IMG/VR virus record: IMGVR_UViG_3300014325_000010
Coordinates: 33,130 to 97,129 of that record
DNA from: a virus
Length of the DNA: 64,000 bases
Direction: 5' to 3' (one strand)
Below, one piece after another: positions 3,451-56,829 of the stretch. Within the stretch, counting starts at the first letter, position 1, and every line of letters starts with the position of its first letter. A model generated the notes under the pieces. It was not told the origin of the DNA. It made no database searches and saw nothing but the letters and a program-made list of their open reading frames with translations. The translations under genes and the position numbers were made by a program.

Positions 3451-4581
3451 TTATGCCGTTTCTGGGCCTAACTCCATCGCATTGACAAGTGATGGAGTAA
3501 TAGTGACTCCACCAAAGTCAATAAAGACTGTACGATATCTAGTGTATGTATCACTCATTACATGTGTGACATCTCCTGGAGTATCCACACCAGCCGAGCG
3601 CACAAATGGAGTTATTTCTGCTGTACCAATAGTGCTCTTTTTCATTACATCTTCAGATATCACAGCTAAGATTGTTCCACTCGATACTGGTAAAGGAGCC
3701 GTAAAATATGTATCTCTTAGCCCGGAAGTTGGACCACCCTCATTATAAGAACCATCACCATCGGGAGTAGCTTCCTTTATCATGTCTCCATGATTAACCC
3801 CACTAGATGGTGTCCATTCAGCATAATTTCCATTCGATGTAAGACCTTGTAACCAATCAACTTCGACGTCACCAATTGGATCAGTCGCACCAACTCCTCC
3901 GCCTAAAGCAAGCGAACCATCTTTCATAACAAAGTCACCAAAATCCCAGGTAACAGATGGTGTTGTCGAGAAGAGATTAGATAACCAACGTAAACCAATT
4001 GCACCAGCTGTCCATTGATTATTACCAGATGGAGCAGTATTTTGACCAGTCAAACTAATGTCGGGAACTGAAGCACCATTAAACCAAAGATCAACAGTTC
4101 CGGCACTAGCATGAGGAATCACTCGAACGCACATTTGCACATGGCTATTTGCTTGCATAACATATGTAGATGTCGCAAGCAATGTTGGTGTGCCTGATCC
4201 AAAATTACCGGTATAGATTGAAACTGTTCCATCTGAATTAATAGCAAGACTTACTTGTGCTGTCGCATTATCGAGGATTGAGAAAAAGGGTTCAGCTGCT
4301 GCAAAATGAGGACCAGAATAACGAAAAGCTAGAGCAGTGATATTGGTGCCGTCATTGGACGGCATAGTCTTTGTGAGATAGTTGTTGTAACCAATCCCAG
4401 AGTGATTGATAAGATTGAATCGTATACCAGGACGTCCACCTCGACCATATGCTCCAATGACTTGTGTGCCTGGAGAAGCTGGACTAAAAGTTTGGGATGT
4501 CCAAAATCCTAATGCTACAGCTTCTGCTGGAGTAGCATAACCACCAAATCCGTCAGCAAAAAGTTTTTGATCATTTGACAT
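3451..4581 (-). CDS. Putative tail tip / baseplate-associated structural protein
   Basis: 376 aa, G/S/T/N-rich beta-type composition, positioned 2 genes downstream of the tape measure protein. Confidence 0.45.
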   Translation of the reverse strand: MSNDQKLFADGFGGYATPAEAVALGFWTSQTFSPASPGTQVIGAYGRGGRPGIRFNLINHSGIGYNNYLTKTMPSNDGTNITALAFRYSGPHFAAAEPFFSILDNATAQVSLAINSDGTVSIYTGNFGSGTPTLLATSTYVMQANSHVQMCVRVIPHASAGTVDLWFNGASVPDISLTGQNTAPSGNNQWTAGAIGLRWLSNLFSTTPSVTWDFGDFVMKDGSLALGGGVGATDPIGDVEVDWLQGLTSNGNYAEWTPSSGVNHGDMIKEATPDGDGSYNEGGPTSGLRDTYFTAPLPVSSGTILAVISEDVMKKSTIGTAEITPFVRSAGVDTPGDVTHVMSDTYTRYRTVFIDFGGVTITPSLVNAMELGPETA

Positions 4582-41516: not shown

Positions 41517-42620
41517 TTACTTTGGAGCTACATCCAAACTGATTGTAGGAGCAAGAGCAGGTGCCGGTGCATTTGGTACATTTGGAACATTAGCACCTAG
41601 ATCAATATCAGCTATATGGTCATCGTAAATAGTGCTCGTATTATCGGTAAGAATACTCACTAATTTCAATTGGGTCCCACCAGAAGTTGTACGATACAAT
41701 TTTCTTGCTATCGTTCCAGTTGGACCTACTGCGATCCCAGCAACTTGCGCATAAAACGGACCTCCAGTAAGTGGTCCTGGTACAGTAGCACTTGCACTTG
41801 GCGCTGATTCAGTAGCCGTTGAAACCCAAGTATATGCCCAAGAACGAACACTATCCCCAGACTTAAAAGGAAACGACAGCACTTGTATATTCGAGGTGGA
41901 TGTAAGAATTCTCCCACTCTCATCTCGAAGAGACAAAGTTACTGTGTATCTACCAACTTTCAAGCCATTTACTACTCCTGGTACAGACATTCTACCAGTT
42001 GCAGCCGTTCCATCCGTTAATCCAGTTGTAACCGTTTCGGGTGATGGACTCGAATCAAAAACAATATCACGAAAATAGTTGTCGGAATTTCTAGTCGCTG
42101 GGTATCTACCGGAAGCAGCATATACACCAATTGATCCAGTAAGTGTATTATTCACGATTGCTTTCGAATAGCCATTTTTGATAGTTGCGTAATGCGCTCC
42201 GCTTGGGTTATTGACACTAGCCACAAAGACCACATTAGCATCTATGGCTACTGGAGTAATTGCCTGTTCTTGCCATCCAGAAGGGGTTTCATTAACAAAG
42301 GTAGCAGTTGCAAGCAAAGTACCAGAAGTATTCCACAAATGACCAATATGTGGACCAAGATCACCAAGCATTTTGTAGAACCGAATAGCTGTGACTCTTC
42401 CAGCAACAGAACTTTTTGCTTGAAGTCCTAATTCGTTTGAACTTGTACCACCAGAAGACACAGGAACTTGGGTGGTCAAAACAGTATTTAATACTGGTCC
42501 TGCTCCGGCGTCTTGCGCTCTCGGATTTTGCACCAATAGAAATAATACGAATGCTAGACTCAATTTATGTATCACTTGGTTTCTCTGGTTTTTTGGAAAG
42601 TCCATCTCTTGGAATTCCAT
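41517..42620 (-). CDS. Secreted beta-rich protein with N-terminal signal peptide
   Basis: 367 aa. N-terminal charged n-region then LSLAFVLFLLV and AQDA cleavage-like site. S/T/G/N-rich body. 5' end overlaps the preceding gene by about 50 nt, so the true start may be an internal Met. Confidence 0.45.
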   Translation of the reverse strand: MEFQEMDFPKNQRNQVIHKLSLAFVLFLLVQNPRAQDAGAGPVLNTVLTTQVPVSSGGTSSNELGLQAKSSVAGRVTAIRFYKMLGDLGPHIGHLWNTSGTLLATATFVNETPSGWQEQAITPVAIDANVVFVASVNNPSGAHYATIKNGYSKAIVNNTLTGSIGVYAASGRYPATRNSDNYFRDIVFDSSPSPETVTTGLTDGTAATGRMSVPGVVNGLKVGRYTVTLSLRDESGRILTSTSNIQVLSFPFKSGDSVRSWAYTWVSTATESAPSASATVPGPLTGGPFYAQVAGIAVGPTGTIARKLYRTTSGGTQLKLVSILTDNTSTIYDDHIADIDLGANVPNVPNAPAPALAPTISLDVAPK

Positions 42621-42801
42621 ATCGCTTCATTTTATGATTCATCATACGCGGACTAATACCCAACACCTCTGCTGCCTTTTTTTGATTACCACCAGAAAAT
42701 GCTAGCGATTCGAGTAAAACACTTCTAATAACAGACTTTAACGTTGGTGGTTTCTTTACAGGAACCCATTCACCATTTTCGTCTTCATAATATTGTTTCA
42801 T
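42565..42801 (-). CDS. Fis-family helix-turn-helix DNA-binding protein
   Basis: 78 aa. C-terminal GNQKKAAEVLGISPRMMNHKMKRYGI matches Fis/NtrC-type HTH_8. Confidence 0.5.
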   Translation of the reverse strand: MKQYYEDENGEWVPVKKPPTLKSVIRSVLLESLAFSGGNQKKAAEVLGISPRMMNHKMKRYGIPRDGLSKKPEKPSDT

Positions 42802-42962: not shown

Positions 42963-44432
42963 TCACCGGACCGCGTGTATAACTCGATCTTCATGGTAAG
43001 GTGTCTTCTGTGTCATACGATTCAAAATTTCCTTACGACGTTCTAAAGAAAGCACAGCCCACTTACGAGCAAAGACAGTTGCAGCTGCGGGAAGCTGTTT
43101 TTGTCTTTGGGTCTTAGCCGGCAGGTTCTTTGTTTCTTGTACAGGTTGCACATCCATCTGTACAGGAAATTCCCGATATGGTAATCCGAGAAGGCGATCT
43201 CGAATTTCGTTTGCGTCCACAACCTTTTCTTTAGCATCCGTATTCAATTGCGCCCAAAGAGTAGCAACTTGTGCTCTTTGCAAGACGTCAAGGTTTTGAA
43301 TTTCGGGCCATCTAACCTCATATTTTTTCGGTTCCGGTAAAGCTCCATGGTCAATTAAGCGATCGACCAACTGCTTTACGACTAAAGGTCCGGCAAAAGC
43401 ATTCCGCCTGTCTGTGACCCGCTCAGCCCAATTATCTCTATCCTGATTGCTTGCTAATTCACCGCGCTCGCTACCCATTAAGATTCGTTGAGGAATACCC
43501 GTTCCGGCTGAGATTTGAGAAATAATGGCATCCATTGGTCCTTTAAAGTTAGCGACCTGGGAACCAAGATTCTTCATCTCGATACCACGTGTCAAGATAC
43601 TCCGTCGATATTTATGTAAATAATCTTCTAACTGCTGCTCAGTTTTTTCTTGATCTTTTTCGTCAAAATCCAATTCGGAATCCACATTGAGTTGAATTCC
43701 AGCATCAGCCCTCTTCCAAAATGCCTCAGATCCTCCTCCTGTCACCTTTTCCAGGTCATCGAGGAGGTTCCACACCCGTTCAAGACGAGGGGTTGCGTAT
43801 ACGTTATCGTCAAGAAGACCGTCGGCAATATGGATACAACGTGTCCAATGCGCTTTTCGTCCAACAGTGGAAAACGCTGTTGTCTGTCCACTAGCTCCAG
43901 AAGGGGGCACCCTTCTCAACATGTAATACAGAGGAAGACCCCAACGAGGATTAGTAGCATCTCGTTCAAATTCGTTAATAACCGCATCTTCTTCGGCAAA
44001 TACTTGTAGATAACCAATTGATTCTGGGTCAGATAGTTCTGGAAGTGGTGTCGTAAGCTCGCCAGGTGCGCCAATAAGAATCACACCATATTGTCCAAGC
44101 CCAGAGACAATATCTGCTCGTTGTAAAACAGACCAGATTTTGAGCCGCGTTTCGAGGAGTTCCCATTCCTGCTCAAATTCCGTGAAGGTATCTGGGTCTT
44201 CATCCTCGATAACTTCGGCTCCACCTCGCCAGGTAGCTTGTGGCTTTGCTTCCACAATTCGTCCGGCAACTGCATTACGGCGATAACGATCACGGTACAT
44301 TTGTGGCACAAGAACACGATCATAGCCACAAACAGCAAAAATGTCCCGTTTACCACCGTATGTAAGTCCAGCAAGAGAAGCTAGTCGTGCTCGCGACGAA
44401 ATTACCGAAGCGACAAGAGACCTCAGATTCAT
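42963..44432 (-). CDS. Putative portal protein
   Basis: 489 aa, acidic, located downstream of the large terminase in the late operon and upstream of head genes. Assignment mainly by position and size. Confidence 0.55.
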   Translation of the reverse strand: MNLRSLVASVISSRARLASLAGLTYGGKRDIFAVCGYDRVLVPQMYRDRYRRNAVAGRIVEAKPQATWRGGAEVIEDEDPDTFTEFEQEWELLETRLKIWSVLQRADIVSGLGQYGVILIGAPGELTTPLPELSDPESIGYLQVFAEEDAVINEFERDATNPRWGLPLYYMLRRVPPSGASGQTTAFSTVGRKAHWTRCIHIADGLLDDNVYATPRLERVWNLLDDLEKVTGGGSEAFWKRADAGIQLNVDSELDFDEKDQEKTEQQLEDYLHKYRRSILTRGIEMKNLGSQVANFKGPMDAIISQISAGTGIPQRILMGSERGELASNQDRDNWAERVTDRRNAFAGPLVVKQLVDRLIDHGALPEPKKYEVRWPEIQNLDVLQRAQVATLWAQLNTDAKEKVVDANEIRDRLLGLPYREFPVQMDVQPVQETKNLPAKTQRQKQLPAAATVFARKWAVLSLERRKEILNRMTQKTPYHEDRVIHAVR

Positions 44433-44446
44433 CTTGATTTCCTAAT

Positions 44447-45052
44447 TTACTTTTGGTTCTGTACTGCCGATGAAATCATAAGCCATTGTGCTACAGCTAA
44501 AAGTAATTCGGTTCCCTCACCACTTTTAGGGACCATGGCGTTACATCCGGAGTCCAGAGCTTTTTTACGTCCTGCATAACGTTCGGATAAGCTGGGCCCA
44601 ACAGATCCACTATGAGCAATAATTGGAACCTGCCATCCCGTTAAACGAACTTGTCGTGCGAACTCATAACCATCCATCATACCCAATCGTATATCGAGAA
44701 CGATTAAGTCTGGTAGTCCTTCGTTCACTAAAGAAGCTAATGCGGTTTCTGCATTAGAACAAGTTCGAACTTTATATCCGGTCGTTTTAAGGATCGTAGT
44801 GGTTAATCGTAAAGTAACCGGATCATCCTCGACTACCAAAATTTCTTTTTCACTGGGAACCACTTCTTTGGGAACAATCCGCGCGTTTCCAAATGTAGCA
44901 ACCACAGTACGATTGGTATCGATAGCATCCAATGTTGCTCGGGAGTGAGTAGTGATTACAGACGATAGATGTTTTGTCTGTTGTGTCAAAACGAACAAAA
45001 TTGCAAGAATGCCAAGAACGATGAGCCCTATAAAAATGGCTAAGTAATTCAT
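44447..45052 (-). CDS. Membrane-anchored response-regulator receiver (CheY-like REC) domain protein
   Basis: 201 aa. N-terminal TM helix MNYLAIFIGLIVLGILAILFVL. The REC domain has all conserved positions: ILVVEDDP (acidic pair), LIVLDIRLG (phospho-acceptor Asp), IIAHSGS (Thr/Ser), AMVPK (Lys). Confidence 0.65.
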   Translation of the reverse strand: MNYLAIFIGLIVLGILAILFVLTQQTKHLSSVITTHSRATLDAIDTNRTVVATFGNARIVPKEVVPSEKEILVVEDDPVTLRLTTTILKTTGYKVRTCSNAETALASLVNEGLPDLIVLDIRLGMMDGYEFARQVRLTGWQVPIIAHSGSVGPSLSERYAGRKKALDSGCNAMVPKSGEGTELLLAVAQWLMISSAVQNQK

Positions 45053-46226: not shown

Positions 46227-47783
46227 TTAGAGGTCACCCCTTTTACCCCATACGCCGCCGTGTTTTTTCGGTGTTTCCGAGATGGGCTTACAAAATGCTA
46301 ACATCAAAGCATCTGCGCGGTTAGGAGAAGGGATTCCACGTCGTTTCGCTTCGTCTTTACTTTCAATAAGAATTTTTCCACTGGAACTACGTTTATAGCG
46401 TAGTTCTACAAGTTCGGCAGCAAGATCATCATCATTAGGATCAAGATCGATTTGACCAGACTCAAATAAATCTCGAACTCGCCACCAAGATTCCGCTCGA
46501 AAATTACCAAAATCCTCTTCGCCGGCTTCGCTTGGGCTGGACGATACGTTGATACCAATAACATTTTTCTTCAGTTCGAGTGCACGATCAGTCACACCAC
46601 GGCCAATACCAATCACGTCAATTTTAGCGAGAGTAGCACCAGTTTTGTTCATGTCGGCAATAACGTTACCACATGTTTCCATGGTGTCTGGATTATGGTC
46701 TTCGCGTATGACGCGAACTACGCCACCTCGCCGATGCGCGATACAGGATGTATCGCCACCACCACCAACGTCGACTCCTAATTCGTTTTTCAATCCAGGC
46801 GAGAGAGTTCTCGCCTGGGCTGCTAAAATCCAAGAGATTGGTATAAGTCCGCCAGCATCGGCAAATTCGGGAAACTTCCCTAATATTTTCGATTGCCAAA
46901 GTGGATTTGTGTCGGTTGGGCTATCTCCCTCAGGTGGAATACACCGAACACCATCCTGGGGTAGACAAGGATCTCCATTTCTGTCAATCCAAAACCATTT
47001 TGGAGCCCATTTTCGACGCTTGTCTTCGACGTAGGTGTGTCCAATCAGCTGGCCACGGATAAAGGCAGGAATATCTTCGCCAGTGAAATTTGGTGTTTCG
47101 AAAGCACCAATTTCGATTACATGCCATCCTGATCCCGGTTTGTTGTTTTCAAAGAATTCGCCATTTGGATCATCGGGATTACCAATAACAACCATCTTAC
47201 TCTGGTCATTTGCAATCAACGAATCCGCGGCCTCCCATAGAGGGCCGCGAATTCCGTTCCCCTCATCAAAGATGACCAGGACTCGTGGAGCATGAATTCC
47301 TTGGAACGCGTCAGGGTTAAAATCATCAGGCTTACGACCATAAGCAACAAGTTCTTCTTTACCACCTTCAACCGGTAACAGCCATTCTGTTTGGTTCATT
47401 CTACCACCAAGCTTACCTTTGGTATGAACCCGGTTGATTTCGCGCCACAAAATGGTTCGAACTTGGTGAGCGCTGGGTGCGCTCGTAATCGCAAATGCTT
47501 CGCCAGGTGGGCTTGTGTCAATCCACCAACCCGCGATTCGGCTAGCAATGAAAGATTTCCCTACGTCGTGGCAACTACGAATCAAGGTTTTGCGATGTGT
47601 AGCAACCGCTTCTAATATTCGTTTCTGTGCACTCCACAAAGTATCGCGTAATTTGATTTCGTTCCACGCCACTGGGTCGAGGAGGAAATGGCGACGTGCC
47701 ATCTCCTCTTCTAGCGCCGCCAGTTCGGCGATAGGGTCTTCGATCTCGTAGTCGTCGTCGTTAGAAAATTGGGAAGCTTCCAT
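46227..47783 (-). CDS. Terminase large subunit
   Basis: 518 aa. Walker A IRSCHDVGKS, Walker B VLVIFDEG, C-terminal RNaseH-like nuclease segment (GVDVGGGGD...IGIGRGV...SPNRADALM). Confidence 0.85.
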   Translation of the reverse strand: MEASQFSNDDDYEIEDPIAELAALEEEMARRHFLLDPVAWNEIKLRDTLWSAQKRILEAVATHRKTLIRSCHDVGKSFIASRIAGWWIDTSPPGEAFAITSAPSAHQVRTILWREINRVHTKGKLGGRMNQTEWLLPVEGGKEELVAYGRKPDDFNPDAFQGIHAPRVLVIFDEGNGIRGPLWEAADSLIANDQSKMVVIGNPDDPNGEFFENNKPGSGWHVIEIGAFETPNFTGEDIPAFIRGQLIGHTYVEDKRRKWAPKWFWIDRNGDPCLPQDGVRCIPPEGDSPTDTNPLWQSKILGKFPEFADAGGLIPISWILAAQARTLSPGLKNELGVDVGGGGDTSCIAHRRGGVVRVIREDHNPDTMETCGNVIADMNKTGATLAKIDVIGIGRGVTDRALELKKNVIGINVSSSPSEAGEEDFGNFRAESWWRVRDLFESGQIDLDPNDDDLAAELVELRYKRSSSGKILIESKDEAKRRGIPSPNRADALMLAFCKPISETPKKHGGVWGKRGDL

Positions 47784-47830: not shown

Positions 47831-48220
47831 TTAGTGTATCGACCTAGGAGTAAAGTCCGTTACGTTGCTTCGCTTTTCTTCCTCTATCGATTCCGTTGAT
47901 ACAATGGCTTTCGCATCCAGATACTGCTTCAGCTTGGTAGCCCGCTTCTGCAGCTCTTCTTGCGACAACTTACTGTAGTCCAGCTTGTCGTCAACCGTAA
48001 TCGTCGAGTGAGTACCAAAACCCGTTCTATCAAGGATAGCACAGGCTGCTTTCACGGAGATGTAGTCGTCTTTATCGCCAGTAGCGATTGCTCGCTGTAA
48101 GGCTTCGATGGATGGTTCGACGAGTTCCAGTAATTTTCTCTTTCCGAGCCTGCGAACCTCGGAAAGAGAAAGACTCGCCTTCGGCGGATTATTCGGTGGA
48201 TTATCTTTGAATAGACTCAT
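47831..48220 (-). CDS. Putative terminase small subunit
   Basis: 129-aa ORF immediately upstream of the large terminase and first gene of the leftward operon. Basic N-terminus with helix-rich region. Confidence 0.45.
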   Translation of the reverse strand: MSLFKDNPPNNPPKASLSLSEVRRLGKRKLLELVEPSIEALQRAIATGDKDDYISVKAACAILDRTGFGTHSTITVDDKLDYSKLSQEELQKRATKLKQYLDAKAIVSTESIEEEKRSNVTDFTPRSIH

Positions 48221-48397
48221 GCTCGTTACACCTAGAAGTTATTGTAGCTGATCGGCAGGGTAATCACAAGACCTTTTTTTGGGCCGGGTTTTCATTTCAC
48301 CAAAAAAGTCCAATAAAATTCACCAAGATAAGTTTGAACGAGCTTTGGAAGAAAGATTTAACTTTACATTTAAGTAAGATCTATAATAACTTAAGGC

Positions 48398-48955
48398 ATG
48401 AAATATCCTATGTTACGTGACCAAGAAATAATTACTATGTATTTAGCCGGAAAAACACAAGATACAATAGGAAAACATTTTGGTATTACTAAAATGAGAG
48501 TTAGTCAGATTCTTAAGTTTTGGAGTGTACCACGAAAAGAAAATAAAATAAAAGATTCTATAGAAAAACGCAGTAACAAATATATAAAACGGTATAGATA
48601 TGCTAAAACAGCGGAATACGAAGAACTTGTTAAAATTGGCGAACTAATGATACAGAATGGAAGTAATCCGGCACAAACACCAATAGGAGCTTTTTATCAA
48701 CACCGTGCAAATGCACGTTATCGGGGTATCGAATGGAATTTAACTTTGTGGGATTGGTGGAAAATATGGAATGATTCTGGAAAATGGGAACTTCGAGGTA
48801 GACGACACAATGAATATCAGATGTGTCGTTGTGGAGATGAAGGACCTTATCAAAAAGATAATGTGTATATTGATTTTTCTCATAATAATGCAGCACTTGG
48901 TGGAGCTAAAGGAGGAAAAATACCCAAGATCAAGCCACTTCCTTCTTCCGATTAA
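48398..48955 (+). CDS. HTH (sigma-70 region-4/LuxR-like) domain protein in an AT-rich island (possible homing-endonuclease-like or regulatory moron)
   Basis: 185 aa. IITMYLAGKTQDTIGKHFGITKMRVSQIL HTH. Local base composition is visibly AT-rich (about 30% GC in the first 60 nt) against neighbours. RBS AAGG 4 nt before ATG. Divergent from the late operon. Confidence 0.5.
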   Translation: MKYPMLRDQEIITMYLAGKTQDTIGKHFGITKMRVSQILKFWSVPRKENKIKDSIEKRSNKYIKRYRYAKTAEYEELVKIGELMIQNGSNPAQTPIGAFYQHRANARYRGIEWNLTLWDWWKIWNDSGKWELRGRRHNEYQMCRCGDEGPYQKDNVYIDFSHNNAALGGAKGGKIPKIKPLPSSD

Positions 48956-49568
48956 CTACAAGCCACCAGTCGCGGTTTAAAGCCGAGTTCAACCCGGCTT
49001 TAGGCTAGTATGAGCCTAAACTTTCGTAGAGCCCTGGGCTCGACCAGTGGCCGGTAAGTAAGCATACCGGGCGGATGTGGACTCGGCGGTTAGCTGGATT
49101 TCCGCGATTAAAAATTCTGAGCCATAAATTTTGGAATAGAAGGGATAGTTTATCAAAGGAGGTAGAATACAATTCAAAAATTGGAATCGTTGCGAAGCCA
49201 AAAACCAGGAGTTCTAAAGGAGGGCCTAGGGTTTCGAGCTTGTTGATGGAAAATAGAAGTTGGAGGTTGGAAGTTGAGGGTTGCGAATTCCGGGTTTAGA
49301 GTTTCGCGGTTCGAGAGGGAGGAGGCGGGTTTAGGGATTCTGATTGGTTTAGGGATTCTGATTGGATTAGAGAAATGGAATTTGGATGAGGATTCCTACG
49401 AGCGCGCATATAAATTTAAGATGACTGATTTCGGGACAAAAAATTTTTACCGTCGTGCGTGCGCCGGGAGTTTTGAGGGAGTTTTGTAACGTGGTAAGTA
49501 ACGCGACAGCGTTACCGTTACGGTCTAAGTAACAGTAACGCTATACCGCGCGTAGCGTGCGGGTGTTA

Positions 49569-49643
49569 CTAGCGGATACGTCGTCCAAGTAACCCGATGA
49601 TGGTAACAAACCAGATGACGAAAGGAACCATATCTAGAGTCAT
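49569..49643 (-). CDS. Candidate 24-aa hydrophobic micro-protein
   Basis: Reverse complement gives AACGAGGTTACACA-ATG ACT CTA GAT ATG GTT CCT TTC GTC ATC TGG TTT GTT ACC ATC ATC GGG TTA CTT GGA CGA CGT ATC CGC TAG (MTLDMVPFVIWFVTIIGLLGRRIR). Strong Shine-Dalgarno with 7-nt spacing, within the conserved ACGAGGTT motif. Too short to be in the ORF track. Confidence 0.3.
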   Translation of the reverse strand: MTLDMVPFVIWFVTIIGLLGRRIR

Positions 49644-49655
49644 TGTGTAACCTCG

Positions 49656-50048
49656 TTACTCGGCAGGGTTGCAGTATGAGATAGCAACGACGATACCGCC
49701 GTCAGGTATCGGCAGTGTTACCGATTGCAGGACACCTTTACCGTAGACGCCTTGTCCTGGGATTGCAGGATACGCAACGCATACCTCGTTAACGTGTGCA
49801 AGGGCGTATGCAGCCATTCCGTTTACGGGTGTAGGTCCGTTAGGTGAACTGCAAGCGGATACTACGACCATACAGAGCAGGGTAATACCTGCCGTAGCTA
49901 CTCTGACAAGGTGTAGAAGCATCGTAGCTGGTTTCACTGGTACAGACTGCGAAGCGCCAAGTTTGATAAGCTTCGCGTAGTCTTCTACGTTCATGCGGCA
50001 GGTAACGCAAAGCTTGTTAGTGTCGGTTTCGGTTTTCTTTTTAGCCAC
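49656..50048 (-). CDS. Small membrane/lipoprotein-like protein
   Basis: GTG start preceded by AACCGAGGTTAAACC (good Shine-Dalgarno). Internal segment MLLHLVRVATAGITLLCMVVVSAC-SSPNG has a lipobox-like VVSAC. Either a type-II membrane anchor or a lipoprotein if translation starts at the internal ATG (49922). Confidence 0.4.
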   Translation of the reverse strand: MAKKKTETDTNKLCVTCRMNVEDYAKLIKLGASQSVPVKPATMLLHLVRVATAGITLLCMVVVSACSSPNGPTPVNGMAAYALAHVNEVCVAYPAIPGQGVYGKGVLQSVTLPIPDGGIVVAISYCNPAE

Positions 50049-50141
50049 GGTTTAACCTCGGTTTAAGACGTTACCAAACGACTAACGGTCGTTACCCCCT
50101 AGACTAGCAGGTAACGACCGTTAGGGTGTTACTACGCGGTG

Positions 50142-50840
50142 TTACCGACGGTTGCCACGGTTGCCACGGTTGCCGCTACCGGCTCCCACGGTTTCGCGTT
50201 CGACCGTTGCGCTCGGCTCGACCGTTGCGCTCGGCTCGACCGTTGCGCTCGGCTCGACCGTTGCGCTCGGCTCGACCGTTGCGCTCGGCTCGACCGTTGC
50301 GCTCGTCGCACTGGCGGCAGACATACCCGCGATAATGTCCACCGTTGGCGCTGCGGTCGTTGCGGTCGTTGCGTCCACCGTTGGCGCTGCGGTCGTTGCG
50401 AACGGGTTGGACGTTGCATTGCGGCGCGCGCGTCCTTTGCCGCCCCTACGCACCCACAGCGTTACGTCACTGTCCAGCGAGCCGAAACCAGAAACCGCGA
50501 ACCCGGTTGTCTGCGCCTTGCTATCCCAGTCGTTAGCAAGCGCAATCGCCTTTGCCGCGTTCTCCGGTGTCGCGTTACCGATGTGCTGATACGCGGTAAC
50601 GCGGGTGCCGCTACCCTCGATACGGCCCGGTGCAACGTTGATACGAACGGCGATACCGTCCTTTGTGCAATACGCGGTGATACGCGCGCGCCGCATGTCG
50701 CTGGTGTCGGCTGGAACCAGAAGCGAGAAGTAGCCGTTCTTCCAGTCGTTGAGCACAAGTAGAATCGACGCAACGGCGATACCCGTTGCTTTGCTCACCG
50801 TCTCGCACGCCGCTTGCAATGCCGTTTGAACTGCGTTCAT
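50142..50840 (-). CDS. Hypothetical protein with C-terminal SATVEP x6 repeats (coding status uncertain)
   Basis: 232-aa ORF. N-terminal 150 aa look globular, with codon third positions GC-biased. Start preceded by AACGAGGTTTAAGGTA. C-terminus is encoded by an 18-bp tandem repeat x6 (50200-50307). The region is GC-rich, so several overlapping ORFs on both strands also exist. Confidence 0.35.
   Translation of the reverse strand: MNAVQTALQAACETVSKATGIAVASILLVLNDWKNGYFSLLVPADTSDMRRARITAYCTKDGIAVRINVAPGRIEGSGTRVTAYQHIGNATPENAAKAIALANDWDSKAQTTGFAVSGFGSLDSDVTLWVRRGGKGRARRNATSNPFATTAAPTVDATTATTAAPTVDIIAGMSAASATSATVEPSATVEPSATVEPSATVEPSATVEPSATVERETVGAGSGNRGNRGNRR
50200..50307. repeat. 18-bp tandem repeat x6 (tcgaccgttgcgctcggc), plus nearby 9-bp x3 (ggttgccac, 50150-50177) and 10-bp x3 (gtaggaaacc, 50934-50963)
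   Basis: Direct reading of the sequence. Head-to-tail identical units. Confidence 0.9.
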
Positions 50841-51979
50841 TACCTTAAACCTCGTTACTGCCGTATCGTTTCGCGTTATTGCGTTACGACCGACAGCAAC
50901 TACTGTAGCACGCTACGTGCCAACGTAGGGACTGTAGGAAACCGTAGGAAACCGTAGGAAACAAAACCGCTATAGCAACGTAGTCTGCCTGTAAGCAGAC
51001 AAAAGGTTACTTTTTAACCCTAATACGGTATTACCTCGTTAGCAGGCTAACGACCGTTATATACACACAGTATTATATGTACGTTGCTACCTCGGTAACG
51101 TTAGCTCTGCCATATCGCCGTAACTGACGCAAACGTAAGCGTAACGCGATAGGGTCTAGAACGTGCGAGGTTTCGATATGAGCGGCGCGCAACGTCACCC
51201 GCTACTTACCTATTACCGGGTTCCCGTTCGTTAAACCTCGTCAAATTTACGTGTAACGTAACTCAGTAACTTACAGGCTTTTGGCGTAACGCCCTAATAC
51301 CGCGTTATTACAATCTGCAATACCGTTATTACAATCTGTAATGTGCTTACGTTACTAGCAGGCTGCTACTTTTGTAACACCTTGCGGGGTAACGCCCTAA
51401 TACGAGGTAACGCCCTAATACCGCGTGGCAAAGACCGTGCCATCCGCCTATCGTTCAGCTTCAAGCTCGGCCGTGGTCCGGGTCCATTTTCACCTTCCAA
51501 GTCTGGTTTCGGCCAGCTCTCCTTTTCGCCGTACTTCCATGGTCCTTCGTACTGTTCCAAATCCTACTGGGTTGGTCGGTATCCCTCGGTTCCTTCGGCG
51601 GAGACTCACAAGCTGCCGGCCGGCGGCTCGTTGATTTTCAATCCTGATTTCAGATTGGATGGGCGACCGACTGATCCGACCGACTGATCCGACCGACTAA
51701 CATCATCCGGATTCCATCGCGATGGATGATCAGAGGGAAACCAGGACTGGTGCTGCGGACGAACCCATAATACATCGGATGGTTCTTAACCCATCTGACC
51801 CCGCGAAAATAGATGCTAGCATTTGGCATCCGCAGCAATCCGACCCTCACCCAAGGGTATACCCGATATAACCCGAGTTTATACCTTTTACGCCCCGCGC
51901 CGCTGGATTCCAGCGATGCGTTCTGGATCAGGATAGACGCGTTCTCGACGCTATCTAAACGTATAGAAACCGCGCGAAC

Positions 51980-52002
51980 GCGGTAAAATAGCGTACCGGG
52001 CG
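51980..52002 (+). promoter_or_regulatory. Conserved promoter-like element copy A (GCGGTAAAATAGCGTACCGGGCG), about 60 nt upstream of the 52061 gene
   Basis: Shares G-TAAAATA-(G/C)CG(T)TA..GGCG core with four other sites (52980-53006, 55048-55075, 61936-61954, 62664-62688), each upstream of a plus-strand gene start. Confidence 0.5.
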
Positions 52003-52060
52003 CCCCGCGTTTGAAACCGCGCGGTTTAGCTCCAATTGATAATCAGAACGGGAGGTAATA

Positions 52061-52345
52061 ATGACAACGACAAGAATAGTCAAGCTACGTGCAGATCGTG
52101 AGTTAACCAAACGTGGTGGGTATGGCGTGGATCGGCTGCTCCCAAGCAGAAATTCCAATGAAGCAGTGTATTGGAAGGACGGAGACAGCTACGTTGCTTC
52201 CAAGGATTCTCACGGTGACTACGTGATCTTCTCGATAACCGGCGTCGGTGAGATCCGTTGGGATGTACGACCCCTGGAGTGGCATCCCAGAAACCTCGAC
52301 GTCATTGACTACTTCTTCGAGCGAGGCACCGAAGAGCGGGCGTAA
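52061..52345 (+). CDS. Hypothetical early protein
   Basis: 94 aa. Strong RBS GGGAGGTAATA-ATG. Confidence 0.55.
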   Translation: MTTTRIVKLRADRELTKRGGYGVDRLLPSRNSNEAVYWKDGDSYVASKDSHGDYVIFSITGVGEIRWDVRPLEWHPRNLDVIDYFFERGTEERA

Positions 52346-52420
52346 GACGTTGCGTGGTGGATAGGTGCAGACTCCTATCTATCACGGAGCAATCTTGCTC
52401 CCTCACCGAAAGGTTCTGGT

Positions 52421-52711
52421 ATGATCAAGGTCTACCATGGCAAAAACTTTGGGCAGATGGCGCTGAAACAGACTCAGTGGCCAGCCGATTACGAGCTGGT
52501 CGCGACAGTGAAAACCGACGATCTCGAGAAAGCGTTCGAGCTCACGAACCACATCAACAGTATCTGGATGCAGAATCCAGATGTGACCGCCGAGCCCGGA
52601 CAGCACCGATCCACCTCAGTCGGCGACGTGATGGTGGACGAAAGCGCCAGAACGTGGCAGTGCGGGGATTTTGGATGGCGGGAGATCGCCTCCGTACAAG
52701 GAGATGCTTAG
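52421..52711 (+). CDS. Hypothetical early protein
   Basis: 96 aa. RBS AAAGG upstream. An alternative overlapping frame (52354-52851) looks like Arg-rich GC artefact. Confidence 0.45.
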   Translation: MIKVYHGKNFGQMALKQTQWPADYELVATVKTDDLEKAFELTNHINSIWMQNPDVTAEPGQHRSTSVGDVMVDESARTWQCGDFGWREIASVQGDA

Positions 52712-52979
52712 CCGTCAAGGATGTGGTGGATGCCAATCCTCTTGTGCCAAGGTCGGCTGCCGACGGAAGAAGCAGTGCAAGCGTTGCGAGAAGCCATACA
52801 GCTTTGATAACCATTCGGGGTTTTGCTGGTGGTGTTGGTTCCGATTTGTAAGGAGAAGTTAGATCCGAGGGATGCTGGATGGCCTGGATCTCGGGCCATC
52901 TGGTGTCCGTTAAACGACGCCCACCCAGGCTACATTTTTATTTTGCCGAGCGTAGTTCGCCGTTAGGAAAACGCCGAAG

Positions 52980-53006
52980 GCGCGGTAAAATAGCGTTACC
53001 GGGCGG
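52980..53006 (+). promoter_or_regulatory. Conserved promoter-like element copy B (GCGCGGTAAAATAGCGTTACCGGGCGG)
   Basis: 43 nt upstream of the 53049 gene. Followed by a partial second copy CGCCCGGTAAAAGGCG. Confidence 0.5.
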
Positions 53007-53048
53007 CGCTTAAGTCGCCCGGTAAAAGGCGTAAAGGGTGGTTAAATC

Positions 53049-53489
53049 ATGGTCGTAAAATTTATGGGTATCCCCGCCCCTCATTTCACGGCTAGGCTCA
53101 GCGTCGAGGAATACCGAGCTTATAAAGAAGACGAGCTCTTCCTCCAGCGCCAGGCAGCGTGGAACGCGAAGGCGGCAATTGAACTCAAGGAAAAACGGGA
53201 GCCTGAGTTCTGGTGGTGGCAAGATGAGAAGGGCGAGTGGGTAGGCAAATGCTCGGGTAAGAAGAACCCGACAACAGGCCTGCCGTGCGAGGCTACGATT
53301 AAGGCTGTTGGACTGGTCCACGTGGAAGGAAAGCGCGTGCGGAGTTCCGACGGCGTGATCAAGGTGAGCGACGAAGCCCACTACTGCATGGAATGTCGAC
53401 CGCGGATCTTTGGACGGGTGAGCGGGCGACCGAGTCGCGGGATTCCAATGTGGGGTTCCGATAACGCCGATTACGAAGGCGAGGTTTAA
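53049..53489 (+). CDS. Hypothetical early protein (Trp/Cys-containing)
   Basis: 146 aa. RBS AAAGGGTGG. Confidence 0.55.
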   Translation: MVVKFMGIPAPHFTARLSVEEYRAYKEDELFLQRQAAWNAKAAIELKEKREPEFWWWQDEKGEWVGKCSGKKNPTTGLPCEATIKAVGLVHVEGKRVRSSDGVIKVSDEAHYCMECRPRIFGRVSGRPSRGIPMWGSDNADYEGEV

Positions 53490-53490
53490 A

Positions 53491-54030
53491 ATGGATGTTC
53501 GAAAATTGAAAGCCTCGGGGCTGTACGTCGAGGCACATCAGAGTAGCGTCGCGAAAGAGCCGACGAACCTGGTGTGTGAGGCGTGCAATAAGACCCTCAT
53601 GCAAATCCCGACCGGCGGGATGCTCTTCACCCAAACCCACGGCCGCTGCACCTGCAGCTGGGGCTGCTGCGAGACGGCCAAGCCGACGAATCGCCCGCAT
53701 CCCCGACACCTCGGCCATCGTGTCGCTGCCCCGAAACTCCAGCCGGGCAAAATCCTGACCCGCAACCATGGGTTCGCGGACGACAAGAAGCACAATGCTG
53801 TGAGGAGTAGCGACTCCGGCATCAACTACATGTTCTTCACGAACTACGAATCGGTGAGTCTGACCGACCGTGAAATTCGCGCTCGCTGGTCCATCGCTGG
53901 TGGTGATCCCTATCGCCATCGTTGTTCTCACGAACACGATTGCTGCGCGTGCCACTTTCATTCCGAGATTCACATCGAGCGTCGTCGGCGATTCGTGGTT
54001 GTTACCCAATTCTGGGGCATTAACATTTAA
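53491..54030 (+). CDS. Hypothetical Cys/His-rich protein
   Basis: 179 aa. CEACNK...CTCSWGCCE...CSHEHDCCACHFHSEIH, likely metal-binding. ATG 2 nt after the previous stop. Confidence 0.5.
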   Translation: MDVRKLKASGLYVEAHQSSVAKEPTNLVCEACNKTLMQIPTGGMLFTQTHGRCTCSWGCCETAKPTNRPHPRHLGHRVAAPKLQPGKILTRNHGFADDKKHNAVRSSDSGINYMFFTNYESVSLTDREIRARWSIAGGDPYRHRCSHEHDCCACHFHSEIHIERRRRFVVVTQFWGINI

Positions 54031-54044
54031 TTCGAGGTGGGCAA

Positions 54045-54533
54045 ATGAAAATCCTGGTTGCACGATTCTGGAACAACGAACCAAGCAAGTGGCACGAGAC
54101 TTATCGCGACGTCATTGGTCTTCGTCGTCTGTCTTCTCATCGTTGGGAAGTTCGTCGTAAGTCCACGACTTCATTAGGATTCGACGACACCATAGTTAGC
54201 GCCGACGAATGCGAGTTCGAGATGGTGGATGAGACCGCCAAGTGCTTCGTGTTCGATTCCACTGAAGAAGCATACGGTGCCTGCCAAACTCGCGACGACA
54301 TCAAAAACGGCGACATGCTTGTCATCCCCTCCGAGCAGGTTGTTGGTCTCGCCGGAACATGGCCAGTGGCTGTGACGGATGAACACGGAGAATTGCACTT
54401 CGTCAATGGGGATGCAAATATTCGTCGATTGATGACCGACGTTAAGTGCTCGAAAGAGCAGGTCAATGCCGCCGTGCGCTTCGCCCAAAAGCACAACTGG
54501 ATCGTTTCGTACCCGTTCCGCCAGGAGATTTGA
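54045..54533 (+). CDS. Hypothetical early protein
   Basis: 162 aa. RBS TCGAGGTGGG. Confidence 0.55.
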   Translation: MKILVARFWNNEPSKWHETYRDVIGLRRLSSHRWEVRRKSTTSLGFDDTIVSADECEFEMVDETAKCFVFDSTEEAYGACQTRDDIKNGDMLVIPSEQVVGLAGTWPVAVTDEHGELHFVNGDANIRRLMTDVKCSKEQVNAAVRFAQKHNWIVSYPFRQEI

Positions 54534-54536
54534 TCA

Positions 54537-54709
54537 TGAGCCGAGCTATTGTCGCTCGATGCATCATTTGTGGGGACGTATACATGTTGACCATCCCCAC
54601 CGGAATGACAAAACCGAATCCGTTCGTCTGCAAATCATGTAAGTCCAACCAGGGAGTTCAAAATGAAGAAACAAGTTCAGCGCACAACCAAGACGGTTGG
54701 CGTAGCTGA
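54537..54709 (+). CDS. Small zinc-ribbon protein
   Basis: 57 aa from ATG 54537 (TGATCATGA overlap with the previous stop). CIICGD...CKSCKS. The ORF-track entry 54446-54709 is the same frame extended upstream. Confidence 0.45.
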
Positions 54710-54995
54710 TCCGACCGAAGTGATCAGCTACGTTGTCCGAGGGAATCTTCCCTTCAACGGACCATGGTACGAGCTCAAGCTTAGTGAGTTCCAGCAGATC
54801 GTCAGTGGGAGCTTTATATACAAGACGATAGAAGGTGAGATCATCAATGGCAGGACGCTGGACGAATTCGTCGCGAATCTCATCTTCGACGGGCTGGAAG
54901 CCGAGCACGAGCTCAAGGAGATCGAGCGGCGGGAGAACGATCCGACCGGCGAGTTTGCGGCGGCTGATCGGAAGATGGGGGATGCGACACCATAA
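54663..54995 (+). CDS. Hypothetical early protein
   Basis: 110-aa ORF. Confidence 0.5.
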   Translation: MKKQVQRTTKTVGVADPTEVISYVVRGNLPFNGPWYELKLSEFQQIVSGSFIYKTIEGEIINGRTLDEFVANLIFDGLEAEHELKEIERRENDPTGEFAAADRKMGDATP

Positions 54996-55047
54996 GAGAT
55001 GTCTGACGGCCGATTGACCGTAAATAGACCGCTAGAAAACCCCGCCC

Positions 55048-55075
55048 GCGTAGTAAAATACGCTTAAGGCGTAGC
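55048..55075 (+). promoter_or_regulatory. Conserved promoter-like element copy C (GCGTAGTAAAATACGCTTAAGGCGTAGC)
   Basis: 63 nt upstream of the 55138 start. Contains dyad TACGC-TTAAG-GCGTA after the TAAAATA box. Confidence 0.5.
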
Positions 55076-55137
55076 CTACCCTTGGAAAAAGCCGAATGTT
55101 CCTGAAAAGAGTGAGCAATAATAGACAAGGAGGTCAC

Positions 55138-55356
55138 ATGTCGGATGAATGGATCGGAAAACGCGTGAAGGTATTCGAGTTGGACGACGAGGGAGATCCA
55201 ACCGAAGTGGTCGCGGCCATCGGAACGGTTCGCGACGCAGATGAGCACCACGGCTTGGGTATTGAGCCCGATGCCGAGTGGCTGAACAACGTTGTGGTCT
55301 ACGGCGACGGACTTATGAGCGCCGAAACTCGAAGTGTTGAGGTGATTGACGAATAA
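55138..55356 (+). CDS. Hypothetical early protein
   Basis: 72 aa. Perfect RBS CAAGGAGGTCAC-ATG. The ORF-track start at 55096 is less likely. Confidence 0.55.
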   Translation: MSDEWIGKRVKVFELDDEGDPTEVVAAIGTVRDADEHHGLGIEPDAEWLNNVVVYGDGLMSAETRSVEVIDE

Positions 55357-55643
55357 TGGACAAACAAGCGATCGCTTTTACATGGGTTCCTACTGCAAAA
55401 ATCGCGCAGATTCAGGAGTTAATTTCGAATGCTTTAGTAGCAAATCCAGAACCATTGCAGGAAGGTGATGTAGTCGCGGCGCTGTTCTTTTTGATCCTTG
55501 GTACGTTGATGATGAGAACGATGGATGAGCAAACAAGGATAGCAGGAGCAACATTCCTCGAGCTCATATCTGATGTGTTTGAGCAGACCGGGTGTCACCA
55601 TCAAGTACACGCAGGGCAGGAAAATCCCGAAACGAAGCATTGA
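55356..55643 (+). CDS. Hypothetical protein
   Basis: 95 aa. TAATG stop-start overlap. Confidence 0.4.
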   Translation: MDKQAIAFTWVPTAKIAQIQELISNALVANPEPLQEGDVVAALFFLILGTLMMRTMDEQTRIAGATFLELISDVFEQTGCHHQVHAGQENPETKH

Positions 55644-55644
55644 T

Positions 55645-55860
55645 ATGAGAAAGATTGAACGTACATCGGACGGGTATTACCATCTCGCATTGACAAACAG
55701 GGAACTCGGCGCGCTGATACAACAGATCGACATCGAGCCAGAAGAACCAACTTCGGCTATGTACAGCAACGCAATTATTGCGGCTGAAATCATAGACGCC
55801 ATCGCGGAAGCATACAAACCAAACGAGGAGGCCGTTGACGATGACGATCAACCCGCCTGA
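55645..55860 (+). CDS. Hypothetical acidic protein
   Basis: 71 aa (MRKIERTSDGYYHLALTNRELGA...). Start chosen at the internal ATG after the previous stop. Weak RBS. Confidence 0.35.
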   Translation: MRKIERTSDGYYHLALTNRELGALIQQIDIEPEEPTSAMYSNAIIAAEIIDAIAEAYKPNEEAVDDDDQPA

Positions 55861-56206
55861 TTGGTACTTCATCTACCTCAATCCAACCTTCGAGGAGGTT
55901 CAGAAACTCGCCGAGAGCATGTGGGATACATGCCGCATCATCAAACATGAGGATGATATCGTCATCGCATCTGGATTAGGGAACACACACGAATCAATGC
56001 TGAAGGCATACCGCACACATACACAGAATTTGCGAGCGATGCCGGAAGCTTACATTTTGTACCATCGTGGTGGGATCGCGTTCTTCAACCTCGAGGATTT
56101 GGGAGGGAGCAGAGCTGCTCGAGCCGCACGATGGGAGAGGTTCTTCTGCGACTTGCACATAAAAATGTTGAAAGATTTAATACGGGAGTCCGGGTACGCA
56201 TTGTGA
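55835..56206 (+). CDS. Hypothetical early protein
   Basis: 123 aa. RBS GAGGAGG upstream. Confidence 0.5.
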   Translation: MTMTINPPDWYFIYLNPTFEEVQKLAESMWDTCRIIKHEDDIVIASGLGNTHESMLKAYRTHTQNLRAMPEAYILYHRGGIAFFNLEDLGGSRAARAARWERFFCDLHIKMLKDLIRESGYAL

Positions 56207-56212
56207 GGGTTT

Positions 56213-56572
56213 ATGGGAGTTTGGGATGAAGGCGGTAAGTCGTGGGCTCGTCCAAAACCTGTTGCCGATCTGAGTAAAAGTGAGGGAACAGTTTTTGAAA
56301 ACCAAAAAACTCTGAGTAAAAGTGAGGGGGAAGGTAGCAAAACCCAAAAAACTCTGAGTAAAAGTGAGGGGCAAAACCCGTTTCCAGCCTCGCCACTCAC
56401 TTCCCCTCAGAAAGACTTACATATTTGTCAGCGATGTAAGCATATCTGGAGCTCCGATTTACACCCTAAACAGTGTCCAAAATGTCGTACCAGGCAGTGG
56501 AGTAAAGTCCTAAACGCCGAAGAATTGTTCCCTTCGCGTATCATTAATTTCAATAATGACGAGGATAATTAG
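56213..56572 (+). CDS. Zinc-ribbon protein with three KTLSKSEG repeats
   Basis: 119 aa. DNA repeat ctgagtaaaagtgaggg x3 (56269, 56312, 56353). C-terminal CQRCKHIW...CPKCRTRQWS. Confidence 0.5.
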   Translation: MGVWDEGGKSWARPKPVADLSKSEGTVFENQKTLSKSEGEGSKTQKTLSKSEGQNPFPASPLTSPQKDLHICQRCKHIWSSDLHPKQCPKCRTRQWSKVLNAEELFPSRIINFNNDEDN

Positions 56573-56581
56573 GGAGTAGTT

Positions 56582-56818
56582 ATGCGAATTGATCGTTCAT
56601 ATCTGTCCGCTACAAAACCACCCAAACACTTTTACATAGAGGCAAAATCTGTTGGCCTCGCTCGTGGGGACTGGCCAATGACTCTCGAAATCATTGAAAA
56701 TGGCAAAGAAATCATGGTGTTCACTCGAGGTGAACCACATTATTGGCAAGAAGCATCGTTCCTTGGATACAATTACGCATCCGAAAAAGATGGCCAATTA
56801 GTGGTTCTTGCATACTGA
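56582..56818 (+). CDS. Hypothetical protein
   Basis: 78 aa. RBS TAGGGAGTAG. Confidence 0.5.
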   Translation: MRIDRSYLSATKPPKHFYIEAKSVGLARGDWPMTLEIIENGKEIMVFTRGEPHYWQEASFLGYNYASEKDGQLVVLAY

Positions 56819-56829
56819 TTGGAGGTCTA

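Follow-up and report, generated by a model that had tools for sequence, protein, structure and literature searches.

A field of GTAAC pentamers in a tailed-phage genome as a candidate origin-type iteron region

The Rep proteins of Staphylococcus aureus pathogenicity islands (SaPIs) are self-loading initiator-helicases whose C-terminal winged-helix domain binds 6-12 penta- or hexanucleotide iterons, and these iterons follow rep directly, facing opposite ways on the two sides of an AT-rich centre (PMC9371898). P4 alpha and pRN1 ORF904 have a common layout of primase, superfamily 3 (SF3) helicase and winged helix (PMC2777425). Here we describe a field of GTAAC pentamers (GTTAC on the opposite strand) that may belong with these systems. 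It lies in a stretch of 64,000 nucleotides (the window; positions 33,130 to 97,129 of IMG/VR virus record IMGVR_UViG_3300014325_000010) that forms a portion of a tailed-phage genome. A first inspection of the letters by a model, referred to below as the sequence-only reading, had described the region as saturated with GTAAC/GTTAC and had proposed a divergent regulatory hub, namely a late/early switch, an immunity region or a second origin. The GTAAC field is a genuine, strongly non-random cis-element. With somewhat less than even confidence, we interpret it as an expanded and displaced form of an origin-type iteron field of the SaPI/P4 kind.

Enrichment and layout of the GTAAC field

The field is located between two blocks of genes. 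To its left runs a long late block on the minus strand, which ends with the portal gene (42963-44432), the large terminase subunit TerL (46227-47783) and a homologue of the small terminase subunit TerS (47831-48220); small plus-strand open reading frames (ORFs) from 52061 on make up the early side. As the sequence-only reading had held, the region between them is largely non-coding and saturated with repeats, and leftward and rightward transcription diverge there. The same phage is found at 99.6% identity in a 112-kb ENA contig, which implies a genome of at least 112 kb, and also in Logan contigs from SRR7975957. A nucleotide search with the GTAAC region matched no INPHARED phage, and protein searches with TerL and the helicase returned distant cultured relatives only and indicated no host.

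Positions 49486-51411 hold 35 GTAAC/GTTAC pentamers, compared with 117 in the other 62 kb of the window (1.9 per kb). Dinucleotide-preserving shuffles of the region gave 11.1±3.0 pentamers with a maximum of 23, and the claimed saturation was thus upheld in the k-mer comparison with both background and shuffles. The top enriched word is the hexamer GTAACG/CGTTAC, seen 22 times where the rest of the window would predict 0.65 copies and the GC-rich neighbour 0.39. Codon usage in translated ORFs, the explanation against which the saturation had been set, does not account for it: the three minus-strand ORFs carry 6.0 pentamers per kb, compared with 34.8 per kb in the DNA around them, and the sole field ORF with good coding statistics carries 4.3 per kb. 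The adjacent early operon (52061-57024) is depleted in the pentamer, with 3 copies where base composition predicts 10.1 (P=0.009), which suggests that the word is read in this phage; the late block shows no such depletion. No second GTAAC field was present in ~100 kb of this genome. The GTAAC sites appear to act like protein-binding sites. The features that make up the field are as follows.

49486-49659: cluster A, 11 GTAAC/GTTAC sites in 174 bp, where the small leftward operon has its 3' end
49498-49515: palindrome GTAACGCGACAGCGTTAC in cluster A, overlapping the next
49508-49542: palindrome AGCGTTACCGTTAC/GTAACAGTAACGCT in cluster A
49647-49659: GTAAC-CTC-GTTAC in cluster A
49569-49643, minus strand: candidate 24-aa ORF (MTLDMVPFVIWFVTIIGLLGRRIR), preceded by GTAACGAGGTTACACAATG
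49656-50048, minus strand: 130-aa ORF that starts with GTG behind CCGAGGTTAAACC and contains a hydrophobic segment and a VSAC resembling a lipobox
50070-50145: cluster B, 5 GTAAC sites in the 93 bp that separate the 232-aa ORF from the 130-aa ORF
50142-50840, minus strand: 232-aa ORFan gene, GTAAC clusters on both flanks
50854-51411: cluster C, 14 GTAAC sites upstream of the 232-aa ORF
50990-51089: local AT-rich stretch, GC 0.35 or less within a 59% GC setting
51072-51099, minus strand: candidate leftward promoter GTTACC-16-TATAAT with GTAAC at -35, a consensus match only
51286-51426: GTAACGCCCTAATAC three times (51286, 51389 and 51407), flanking the AT-rich 21-bp repeat
51286-51426, within: candidate rightward promoters GTAAC-18-TACAAT and ATTACA-17-TACAAT, consensus matches

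The orientation of the pentamers appears to change at 50990-51089. In cluster C the sites at 50854, 50883 and 51006 on one side of this AT-rich centre are minus-oriented, and 10 of 11 on the other side (51095-51407) are plus-oriented; counted to the left and right of the stretch, 11 of 14 sites are minus and 10 of 11 plus, respectively (Fisher P=0.001). Cluster A is mixed, and both orientations occur within every cluster. The stretch contains the palindromic site TAACGACCGTTA (51048-51059) and TATATACACACAGTATTATATGTA, and is a candidate unwinding centre or promoter core. Further right, GC drops to 0.275 at 51295-51359. Cluster B contains an inverted repeat, which had been noticed as 15-bp arms and in fact has 21-nt arms (50082-50102 and 50104-50124) that are 90% complementary and form a 43-bp near-perfect palindrome. 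This palindrome holds two TAACGNNCGTTA sites, and the relation that had been drawn to 51048 is borne out by a third copy, giving three (50083, 50112 and 51048) against 0.03 expected.

Iteron arrays beside primase-helicase genes

A primase-helicase gene lies to the right of the early operon and is preceded by a second, compact array of a different word.

57586-57904, both orientations: compact GGTAAACC/GGTTTACC array with an A-rich stretch, 1.4 kb upstream of the primase-helicase gene
59328-61649, plus strand: Prim-Pol and VapE-like primase-helicase of 773 aa (Pfam)

The helicase profile matches SaPI1 Rep1 bound to DNA (PDB 7PDS) at E=1e-51. Beyond the helicase domain, the C terminus has a further ~110 aa that are conserved, and the 773-aa protein is a candidate iteron-binding initiator on the basis of this homology. 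All nine exact GGTAAACC/GGTTTACC copies of the window fall within the array at 57586-57904, along with four one-mismatch copies; a Logan contig ends inside it, at 57737. The two iteron fields, GTAAC and GGTAAACC, therefore bracket the GC-rich early operon, and the phage has two SF3-type helicases. The other helicase belongs to a second replication set ~10-14 kb right of the window end, consisting of a stand-alone Prim-Pol (253 aa, L509 10001-10762) and a D5_N/DUF5906 helicase (470 aa, L509 13947-15359), and neither GTAAC nor any other iteron array adjoins these two genes.

We compared the region with that of phages whose TerL is 51-67% identical, taken from IMG/VR and JGI metagenomes; the metagenome scan returned one closer relative (88% identical), on a 1-kb contig. 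Five TerL relatives (L002/3, L004, L007, L008 and L016) carry compact GTAAC arrays of ~300 bp, built from three direct copies at 9-bp spacing, a ~100-bp spacer, three inverted copies and then further sets. Each array sits between a homologue of the window primase-helicase and terS, 60-600 bp upstream of the latter. Other relatives have the same architecture with other words, TATAAC in L005, GCGGGA in L006, TTGGACA in L160 and GTAAAC in L001/L152. A word that differs from phage to phage at a fixed place is as expected of co-evolving iterons. In the closest relative, L001/L152, the GTAAAC array lies 3' of the helicase, 600 bp from it and 7 kb from terS, and the GGTAAACC array of the window is its counterpart.

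Because an array between helicase and terS is ambiguous, both associations were tested. The GTAAC-array phages have TerS proteins just 31-37% identical to the window TerS, and the primase-helicase is the sole protein family that the window shares with the array-bearing L002, L007, L008, L016, L056 and L102. When helicases are ranked by the similarity of their C-terminal domain to that of the window, the words used are GTAAAC, GTAAC, GTAAC and GTAAC, then GCAAC and ATAAC. A scan of bacteria, with one genome per species and a four-sequence helicase alignment (a seven-sequence alignment was too divergent), gave 77 loci from Alphaproteobacteria, Acidobacteriota, Planctomycetes, Bacillota and others. 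A pentamer cluster of at least 8 copies lies within 400 bp past the helicase stop in 36% of these, compared with 4-16% at six control offsets, and the arrays begin 0-70 bp from the stop codon. The commonest iteron is GTAAC (8 loci with at least 6 copies), often as GTAACG or CCGTAAC, followed by GGAAC and CTAAC. At L436, L438 and L458 the downstream genes are convergent and no terS follows, which assigns those arrays to the helicase and not to terS. Collectively, the bacterial loci, L001/L152 and the TerS comparison tie the arrays of this helicase family to the helicase, insofar as genome comparison can place them.

A pattern scan of IMG/VR for GTAAC-N4-GTAAC-N4-GTAAC, in which proportions were compared among the matches listed, supports a wider use of the word. 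Among the 120 listed loci (L031-L150, for example L041, L047, L059, L066, L080, L085, L119 and L145), 38 are non-coding two-orientation GTAAC arrays of at least 7 copies. The corresponding counts for two composition-matched control pentamers were 4 of 120 and 7 of 118, again among the matches listed, making GTAAC arrays 5-10 times commoner. At least 53 non-coding arrays were listed; 18 of them adjoin VapE/DUF5906 or DUF927 primase-helicases, one adjoins a Toprim-AAA_25 helicase, and 15 precede the genes of a single Terminase_2 TerS family by 100-150 bp. In another group of phages, GTAAC thus stands at the beginning of the packaging module as well.

As far as sequence can tell, the window field has its closest analogue in L171 (TerL 58% identical), where 4021-4296 is a GTAACG-rich divergent intergenic region of 275 bp that includes AACGAGGT. 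It lies 5.7 kb upstream of the HNH-terS-terL genes of that phage, and its flanking ORFs (281 aa and 391 aa) have no Pfam hit.

Two further motifs were seen in the arrays. A near-palindromic CCCTATAG(G) or CCTTATAAGG recurs in or beside GTAAC arrays of unrelated loci, standing at the array centres of L436, L464, L007, L016, L100, L102 and L080, and may serve in melting, in nicking or as a promoter; the window field has only GCTATAGC of this type (50969-50976). The motif CTCTATTT, common to the array centres of L007, L008 and L160, was rejected as a candidate: the field lacks it, a copy at 57626 adjoins the GGTAAACC array, and its three hits in 64 kb are at chance level.

Weighing an origin against other roles

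In the interpretation that we prefer, about 35 single GTAAC(G) pentamers and at least four other small repeat families lie in three non-coding segments that flank and divide a small leftward ORFan operon. Each pentamer would be bound by a self-loading SF3 helicase-initiator of the phage through its C-terminal winged-helix domain, with the 773-aa Prim-Pol/VapE protein and the D5_N/DUF5906 helicase, 14 kb right of the window, as the candidates. Oligomers bound on either side of the AT-rich 50990-51089 and 51295-51359 would then melt the DNA locally. The field would then be an origin. Alternatively, its iterons would have an auxiliary or copy-control role, resembling P4 crr or the inc iterons of P1 and F, and would work together with the GGTAAACC array at 57.6 kb. 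Since GTAAC sites overlap the -35 elements of two candidate divergent promoters, the same binding would probably repress local transcription too. The enrichment, its place in non-coding DNA, the homology of the helicase to SaPI1 Rep1 and the link of GTAAC arrays to this helicase family are observations; which protein binds, and a start of replication in the GTAAC field, we infer. A second origin is also the one hub role of the sequence-only reading that survives, GTAAC arrays being the commonest iteron beside primase-helicase homologues. The late/early switch does not: a different divergent intergenic region (48221-48397) provides terS with a sigma-70-like promoter of its own, and an opposite-strand gene and a GA-rich repeat zone of ~500 bp intervene between terS and the field. 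Nor does immunity, as neither a repressor-like gene nor one for an integrase was found beside the field.

Several observations weigh against an origin in the GTAAC field. For the protein that binds GTAAC there are candidates only. The field lies 8 kb upstream of the helicase gene and not 3' of it, and the 3' flank of that gene (61650-61986) carries 1-2 GTAAC sites and no array. With ORFs inside it, the field spans 2 kb, about six times the length of a canonical array (200-350 bp). Spacing within clusters is irregular at 5-30 bp, with no preferred distance and no 9-11-bp phasing, and the orientation switch becomes marginal once the split point is free (best-split permutation P=0.05). L001/L152, the closest relative (TerS 60% identical, helicase C-terminal domain 45%), has the GTAAAC array and no GTAAC field. 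By its correspondence to that array, the GGTAAACC array at 57586-57904, rather than the GTAAC field, may be the cognate SaPI-type origin. Furthermore, the 15 unrelated contigs with a GTAAC array before a Terminase_2 terS indicate that the word is not exclusive to origins.

The main rival to an origin is a plausible operator role at divergent promoters. A DNA-binding protein of the phage would read GTAAC(G) half-sites and TAACG-N2-CGTTA palindromes and control two back-to-back promoters, one for the leftward ORFan operon and one for the rightward early operon, which is compatible with an origin role; as the explanation of the field we consider it rather unlikely. The excess of TAACGNNCGTTA palindromes, the 43-bp palindrome between two ORFs and the co-orientation of most sites with the inferred transcription on each side are consistent with operators, and GTAAC stands at -35 of both GTTACC-16-TATAAT (leftward) and GTAAC-18-TACAAT (rightward), which are ~190 bp apart. 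These promoters are, however, consensus matches in a field where promoter-like sites are no commoner than in shuffles. The GTAACG-rich divergent region of L171, with its AACGAGGT, looks like a parallel, but the ORFs beside it carry no annotation, and in the window no repressor-like gene adjoins the field and no helix-turn-helix (HTH) or ribbon-helix-helix (RHH) domain was found in the 232-aa and 130-aa ORFs even at E=5. The ORFs to the right of the field gave no HTH or RHH either, and the sole HTH protein nearby is the one at 48398-48955. Thirty-five sites with no fixed dimer spacing also far exceed known operator regions, and with clusters A and B they continue past the operon on its downstream side. 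The orientation bias along transcription would also suit a signal at the RNA level, with GUAACG and the Shine-Dalgarno-like AACGAGGU as decoy ribosome-binding sites, protein sites or processing hairpins. The palindromes would form hairpins in the leftward transcript, both between ORFs and at the 3' end, and three or four AACGAGGT/CCGAGGT copies lack a suitably spaced start codon. We hold an RNA signal to be extremely unlikely, given that GTAAC occurs in both orientations within each cluster and forms DNA-type arrays beside helicase genes in many genomes, and that the field has no Rfam match at E up to 1.

A packaging site of the pac or cosB-like kind would have TerS oligomers bind GTAAC arrays on both sides of a cleavage site, much as TerS oligomers bracket pacC (PMC4856287). 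The field is the closest GTAAC cluster upstream of terS in the window, and arrays are found before terS both in the five related phages (60-600 bp) and in the 15 unrelated viral contigs, where they end ~100-150 bp upstream of a Terminase_2 terS. Against this, 1.27 kb separates the terS start (48220) from the field, with the opposite-strand gene 48398-48955 and the GA-rich zone between; the closest TerS, that of L001 at 60% identity, has no GTAAC array upstream of its gene; bacterial arrays follow the helicase even where no terminase comes after it; and the HNH-terS junction of L171 is distant from its array. A packaging role for the GTAAC field is unlikely, and we assign it a very low probability. 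Distinctly improbable as well, in our view, is that the field is a remnant or an iteron sink, in which a GC-rich segment was gained with its iterons from a GTAAC-type relative and is now functionless or titrates the initiator of competitors. Such an acquisition would fit the GC content of the field and early operon, 0.50-0.59, which resembles that of GTAAC-type relatives (0.52-0.63) while the late block is at ~0.40, and it would fit the ORFan character of their proteins; the L001-like GGTAAACC array is already present and could be the origin. Yet 35 intact copies and depletion of the word in the neighbouring operon argue for present selection, and the field is no simple copy, since the canonical arrays of the relatives are compact and use (T/G)GTAAC(C/A), not GTAACG. 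We likewise see only a small chance that two iteron fields serve two initiators, GGTAAACC with the Prim-Pol/VapE protein and GTAACG with the pair of Prim-Pol and D5_N/DUF5906 helicase, or else that the field is a sink for the Rep of competitors. As a sink it would titrate or handcuff the Rep of GTAAC-using phages or satellites and be a weapon in a conflict of mobile elements, not an origin of the phage itself.

Should the preferred interpretation hold, with the field as an origin or copy-control region, SaPI-type pentamer origins would not be confined to satellites. They would be a general property of the large VapE/D5 family of primase-helicases, across phages and prophages from many phyla, and GTAAC would be among the words preferred. 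Such origins could move away from the helicase gene, expand to tens of sites and duplicate with different specificity within a single genome that is at least 112 kb long. For uncultured phages, origins could be predicted by a simple rule, a pentamer array where the helicase gene ends, and the locus would be a test case for how helicase C-terminal domains co-evolve with the iterons they recognise. Should it be an operator field or an iteron sink instead, it would represent an uncommon kind of regulatory or competitive device.

Surrounding features and comparison with known systems

The ORFs of the field were evaluated separately. The codon statistics of the N-terminal 135 codons of the 232-aa ORF resemble those of the early genes of the phage, while its C-terminal half is of low complexity (SATVEP six times, GNR three times and a basic patch). 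For this ORF, Pfam, PHROG and PDB-related comparisons were without signal up to E=5; a word-indexed search of 5.8 billion sequences and an exhaustive HMMER search of 1.84 billion representatives returned the same phage only, plus low-complexity hits, and the AlphaFold2 (AF2) model of its N-terminal domain has a pLDDT of 47 and no usable fold. The 130-aa and 24-aa ORFs have good ribosome-binding sites; the codon statistics of the former are ambiguous, and the latter, a putative gene, may encode a small membrane peptide. Neither the 232-aa nor the 130-aa ORF has homologues in IMG/VR, and no ORF in or beside the field has a Pfam hit at E up to 5. To the right, the early-operon protein at 53491-54030 had itself as its sole match.

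Every tandem repeat that the sequence-only reading had listed was found by Tandem Repeats Finder (TRF), which added one that was absent from its list, at 51303-51342. The repeats, and the gene that lies to the left of the field, are as follows.

48398-48955, plus strand: 185-aa ORF with an N-terminal HTH of Sigma70_r4 type; its C-terminal half is phrog_16521
49328-49370: 18-bp repeat, 2.4 copies
50148-50174: 9-bp repeat, 3 copies
50200-50305, minus strand: 18-bp repeat, 5.9 copies, inside the 232-aa ORF
50934-50962: 10-bp repeat GTAGGAAACC, 2.9 copies, the second repeat family in cluster C
51303-51342: AT-rich 21-bp repeat, 1.9 copies
51664-51698: 13-bp repeat CGACCGACTGATC, 2.7 copies

The six-copy 18-bp repeat had been counted among the control-region repeats, and this assignment does not stand: it encodes the SATVEP repeat of the 232-aa ORF, and its copy number varies between assemblies. 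The ENA contig has four copies fewer (72 nt) and otherwise differs by one single-nucleotide polymorphism across 20.7 kb, and a Logan contig breaks inside the repeat, consistent with a variable-number tandem repeat. Among the contigs of this phage, none ends at the GTAAC field.

The ribosome-binding-site word AACGAGGTT had been reported six times on the minus strand. This holds in part. Of the 12 ACGAGGT copies in the window, six fall in the region, five on the minus strand and one on the plus strand; the strict form of AACGAGGTT is present twice, and CCGAGGT variants add two more. Three GAGGT-type copies stand at Shine-Dalgarno distance from the starts at 50840, 50048 and 49643, and the three or four AACGAGGT or CCGAGGT copies mentioned above do not, in agreement with what had been described. 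A promoter of the extracytoplasmic-function (ECF) sigma type, with GTAAC at -35 and CGT at -10, was considered and rejected, as it had only 1-3 matches. The visible rise in GC is real relative to the late block (0.59 at 50-51 kb versus 0.36-0.45); the GC-rich zone runs on to ~57 kb, however, and the rise is therefore not specific to the GTAAC region.

The C-terminal half of the 185-aa ORF may be HNH-type nuclease-like, judged by eye, and on that by-eye reading the ORF is probably an inserted homing-endonuclease-like gene and not a regulator. It has a homologue in none of the relatives and none in IMG/VR, and no PDB relative was found that would bear on this sigma-r4-like protein as a GTAAC binder. 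Between it and the field, 49000-49480 is a purine-rich (GGA/GGTT) non-coding zone with the 18-bp repeat at 49328-49370 and 7/14-bp repeats, which may be a terS-proximal element (late promoter or pac). L001 has a C/T-rich zone of similar composition upstream of terS, with AACTATATTCTC three times. On the other side of the field, ~600 bp of non-coding DNA (51450-52060) precedes the first early gene, with no GTAAC sites and with terminator-like hairpins at 51503-51516 and 51611-51633. The morphogenesis block contains two genes in unusual placements, according to precomputed Pfam assignments on the L030 gene calls: a Response_reg-like protein of 201 aa (44447-45052) between TerL and portal, and a 78-aa HTH_8 (Fis-type) protein (~42560-42800) just after portal. 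Just upstream of the primase-helicase, 58143-59319 holds five copies of a ~76-nt repeat and related families of 63-86 nt, each with two hairpins. The second stem varies but stays paired (CCAGTAACAC..GTGTTACTGG, CCAATAACAC..GTGTTATTGG and CCACTACAAC..GTTGTAGTGG), and this covariation looks like that of a structured DNA or RNA element; the repeats have no Rfam match.

The GTAAC field can be set beside several known phage and plasmid systems. The start-associated sequences of Cluster K mycobacteriophages and the stoperators of Cluster A are 13-bp motifs that occur genome-wide. The field resembles them in its ribosome-binding-site word GTAACGAGGTT, which stands before some starts and also occurs without a start, and in its many asymmetric sites biased along transcription; unlike them, its sites lie within 2 kb and have a core of 5-6 bp. 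Recognition sites of TerS include the R sites of lambda cosB and the pac hexamers of P1. In SPP1, pacL and pacR are TerS recognition sites on both sides of a central segment (PMC4856287). The field likewise has short-repeat clusters that flank a central segment near terminase genes, but it does not adjoin terS.

Closer similarities are found among replication regions. In oriR-repA-incA of P1 and incB-repE-incC of F, the initiator gene is flanked by clusters of iterons of 19-22 bp. The 232-aa gene is flanked in the same way by cluster C (14 sites) upstream and clusters B and A (16 sites) downstream, and GTAAC sites overlap its likely promoter, whereas its protein has no Rep_3 or winged-helix signature and no homologues and the repeat core is 5-6 bp. 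P4 has two separated iteron regions, ori and crr, which alpha binds and which share the same octamer. Our analysis suggests a comparable arrangement in the window, with one protein of the primase, SF3-helicase and winged-helix type and two iteron regions several kb apart; in contrast to P4, these regions use different words (GTAACG and GGTAAACC), and the phage has the extra D5_N/DUF5906 helicase. The canonical arrays of the relatives agree with the SaPI origin feature by feature. The window field differs from that origin in having 35 irregular sites in 2 kb, compared with 6-12 sites in ~300 bp, and in lying 8 kb from the helicase and enclosing an ORFan operon, with the array of the other word (GGTAAACC) nearer the helicase. 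What it has in common with the SaPI origin is a penta- or hexanucleotide unit in many copies and in both orientations around AT-rich stretches, in a phage that encodes a homologue of SaPI1 Rep1.

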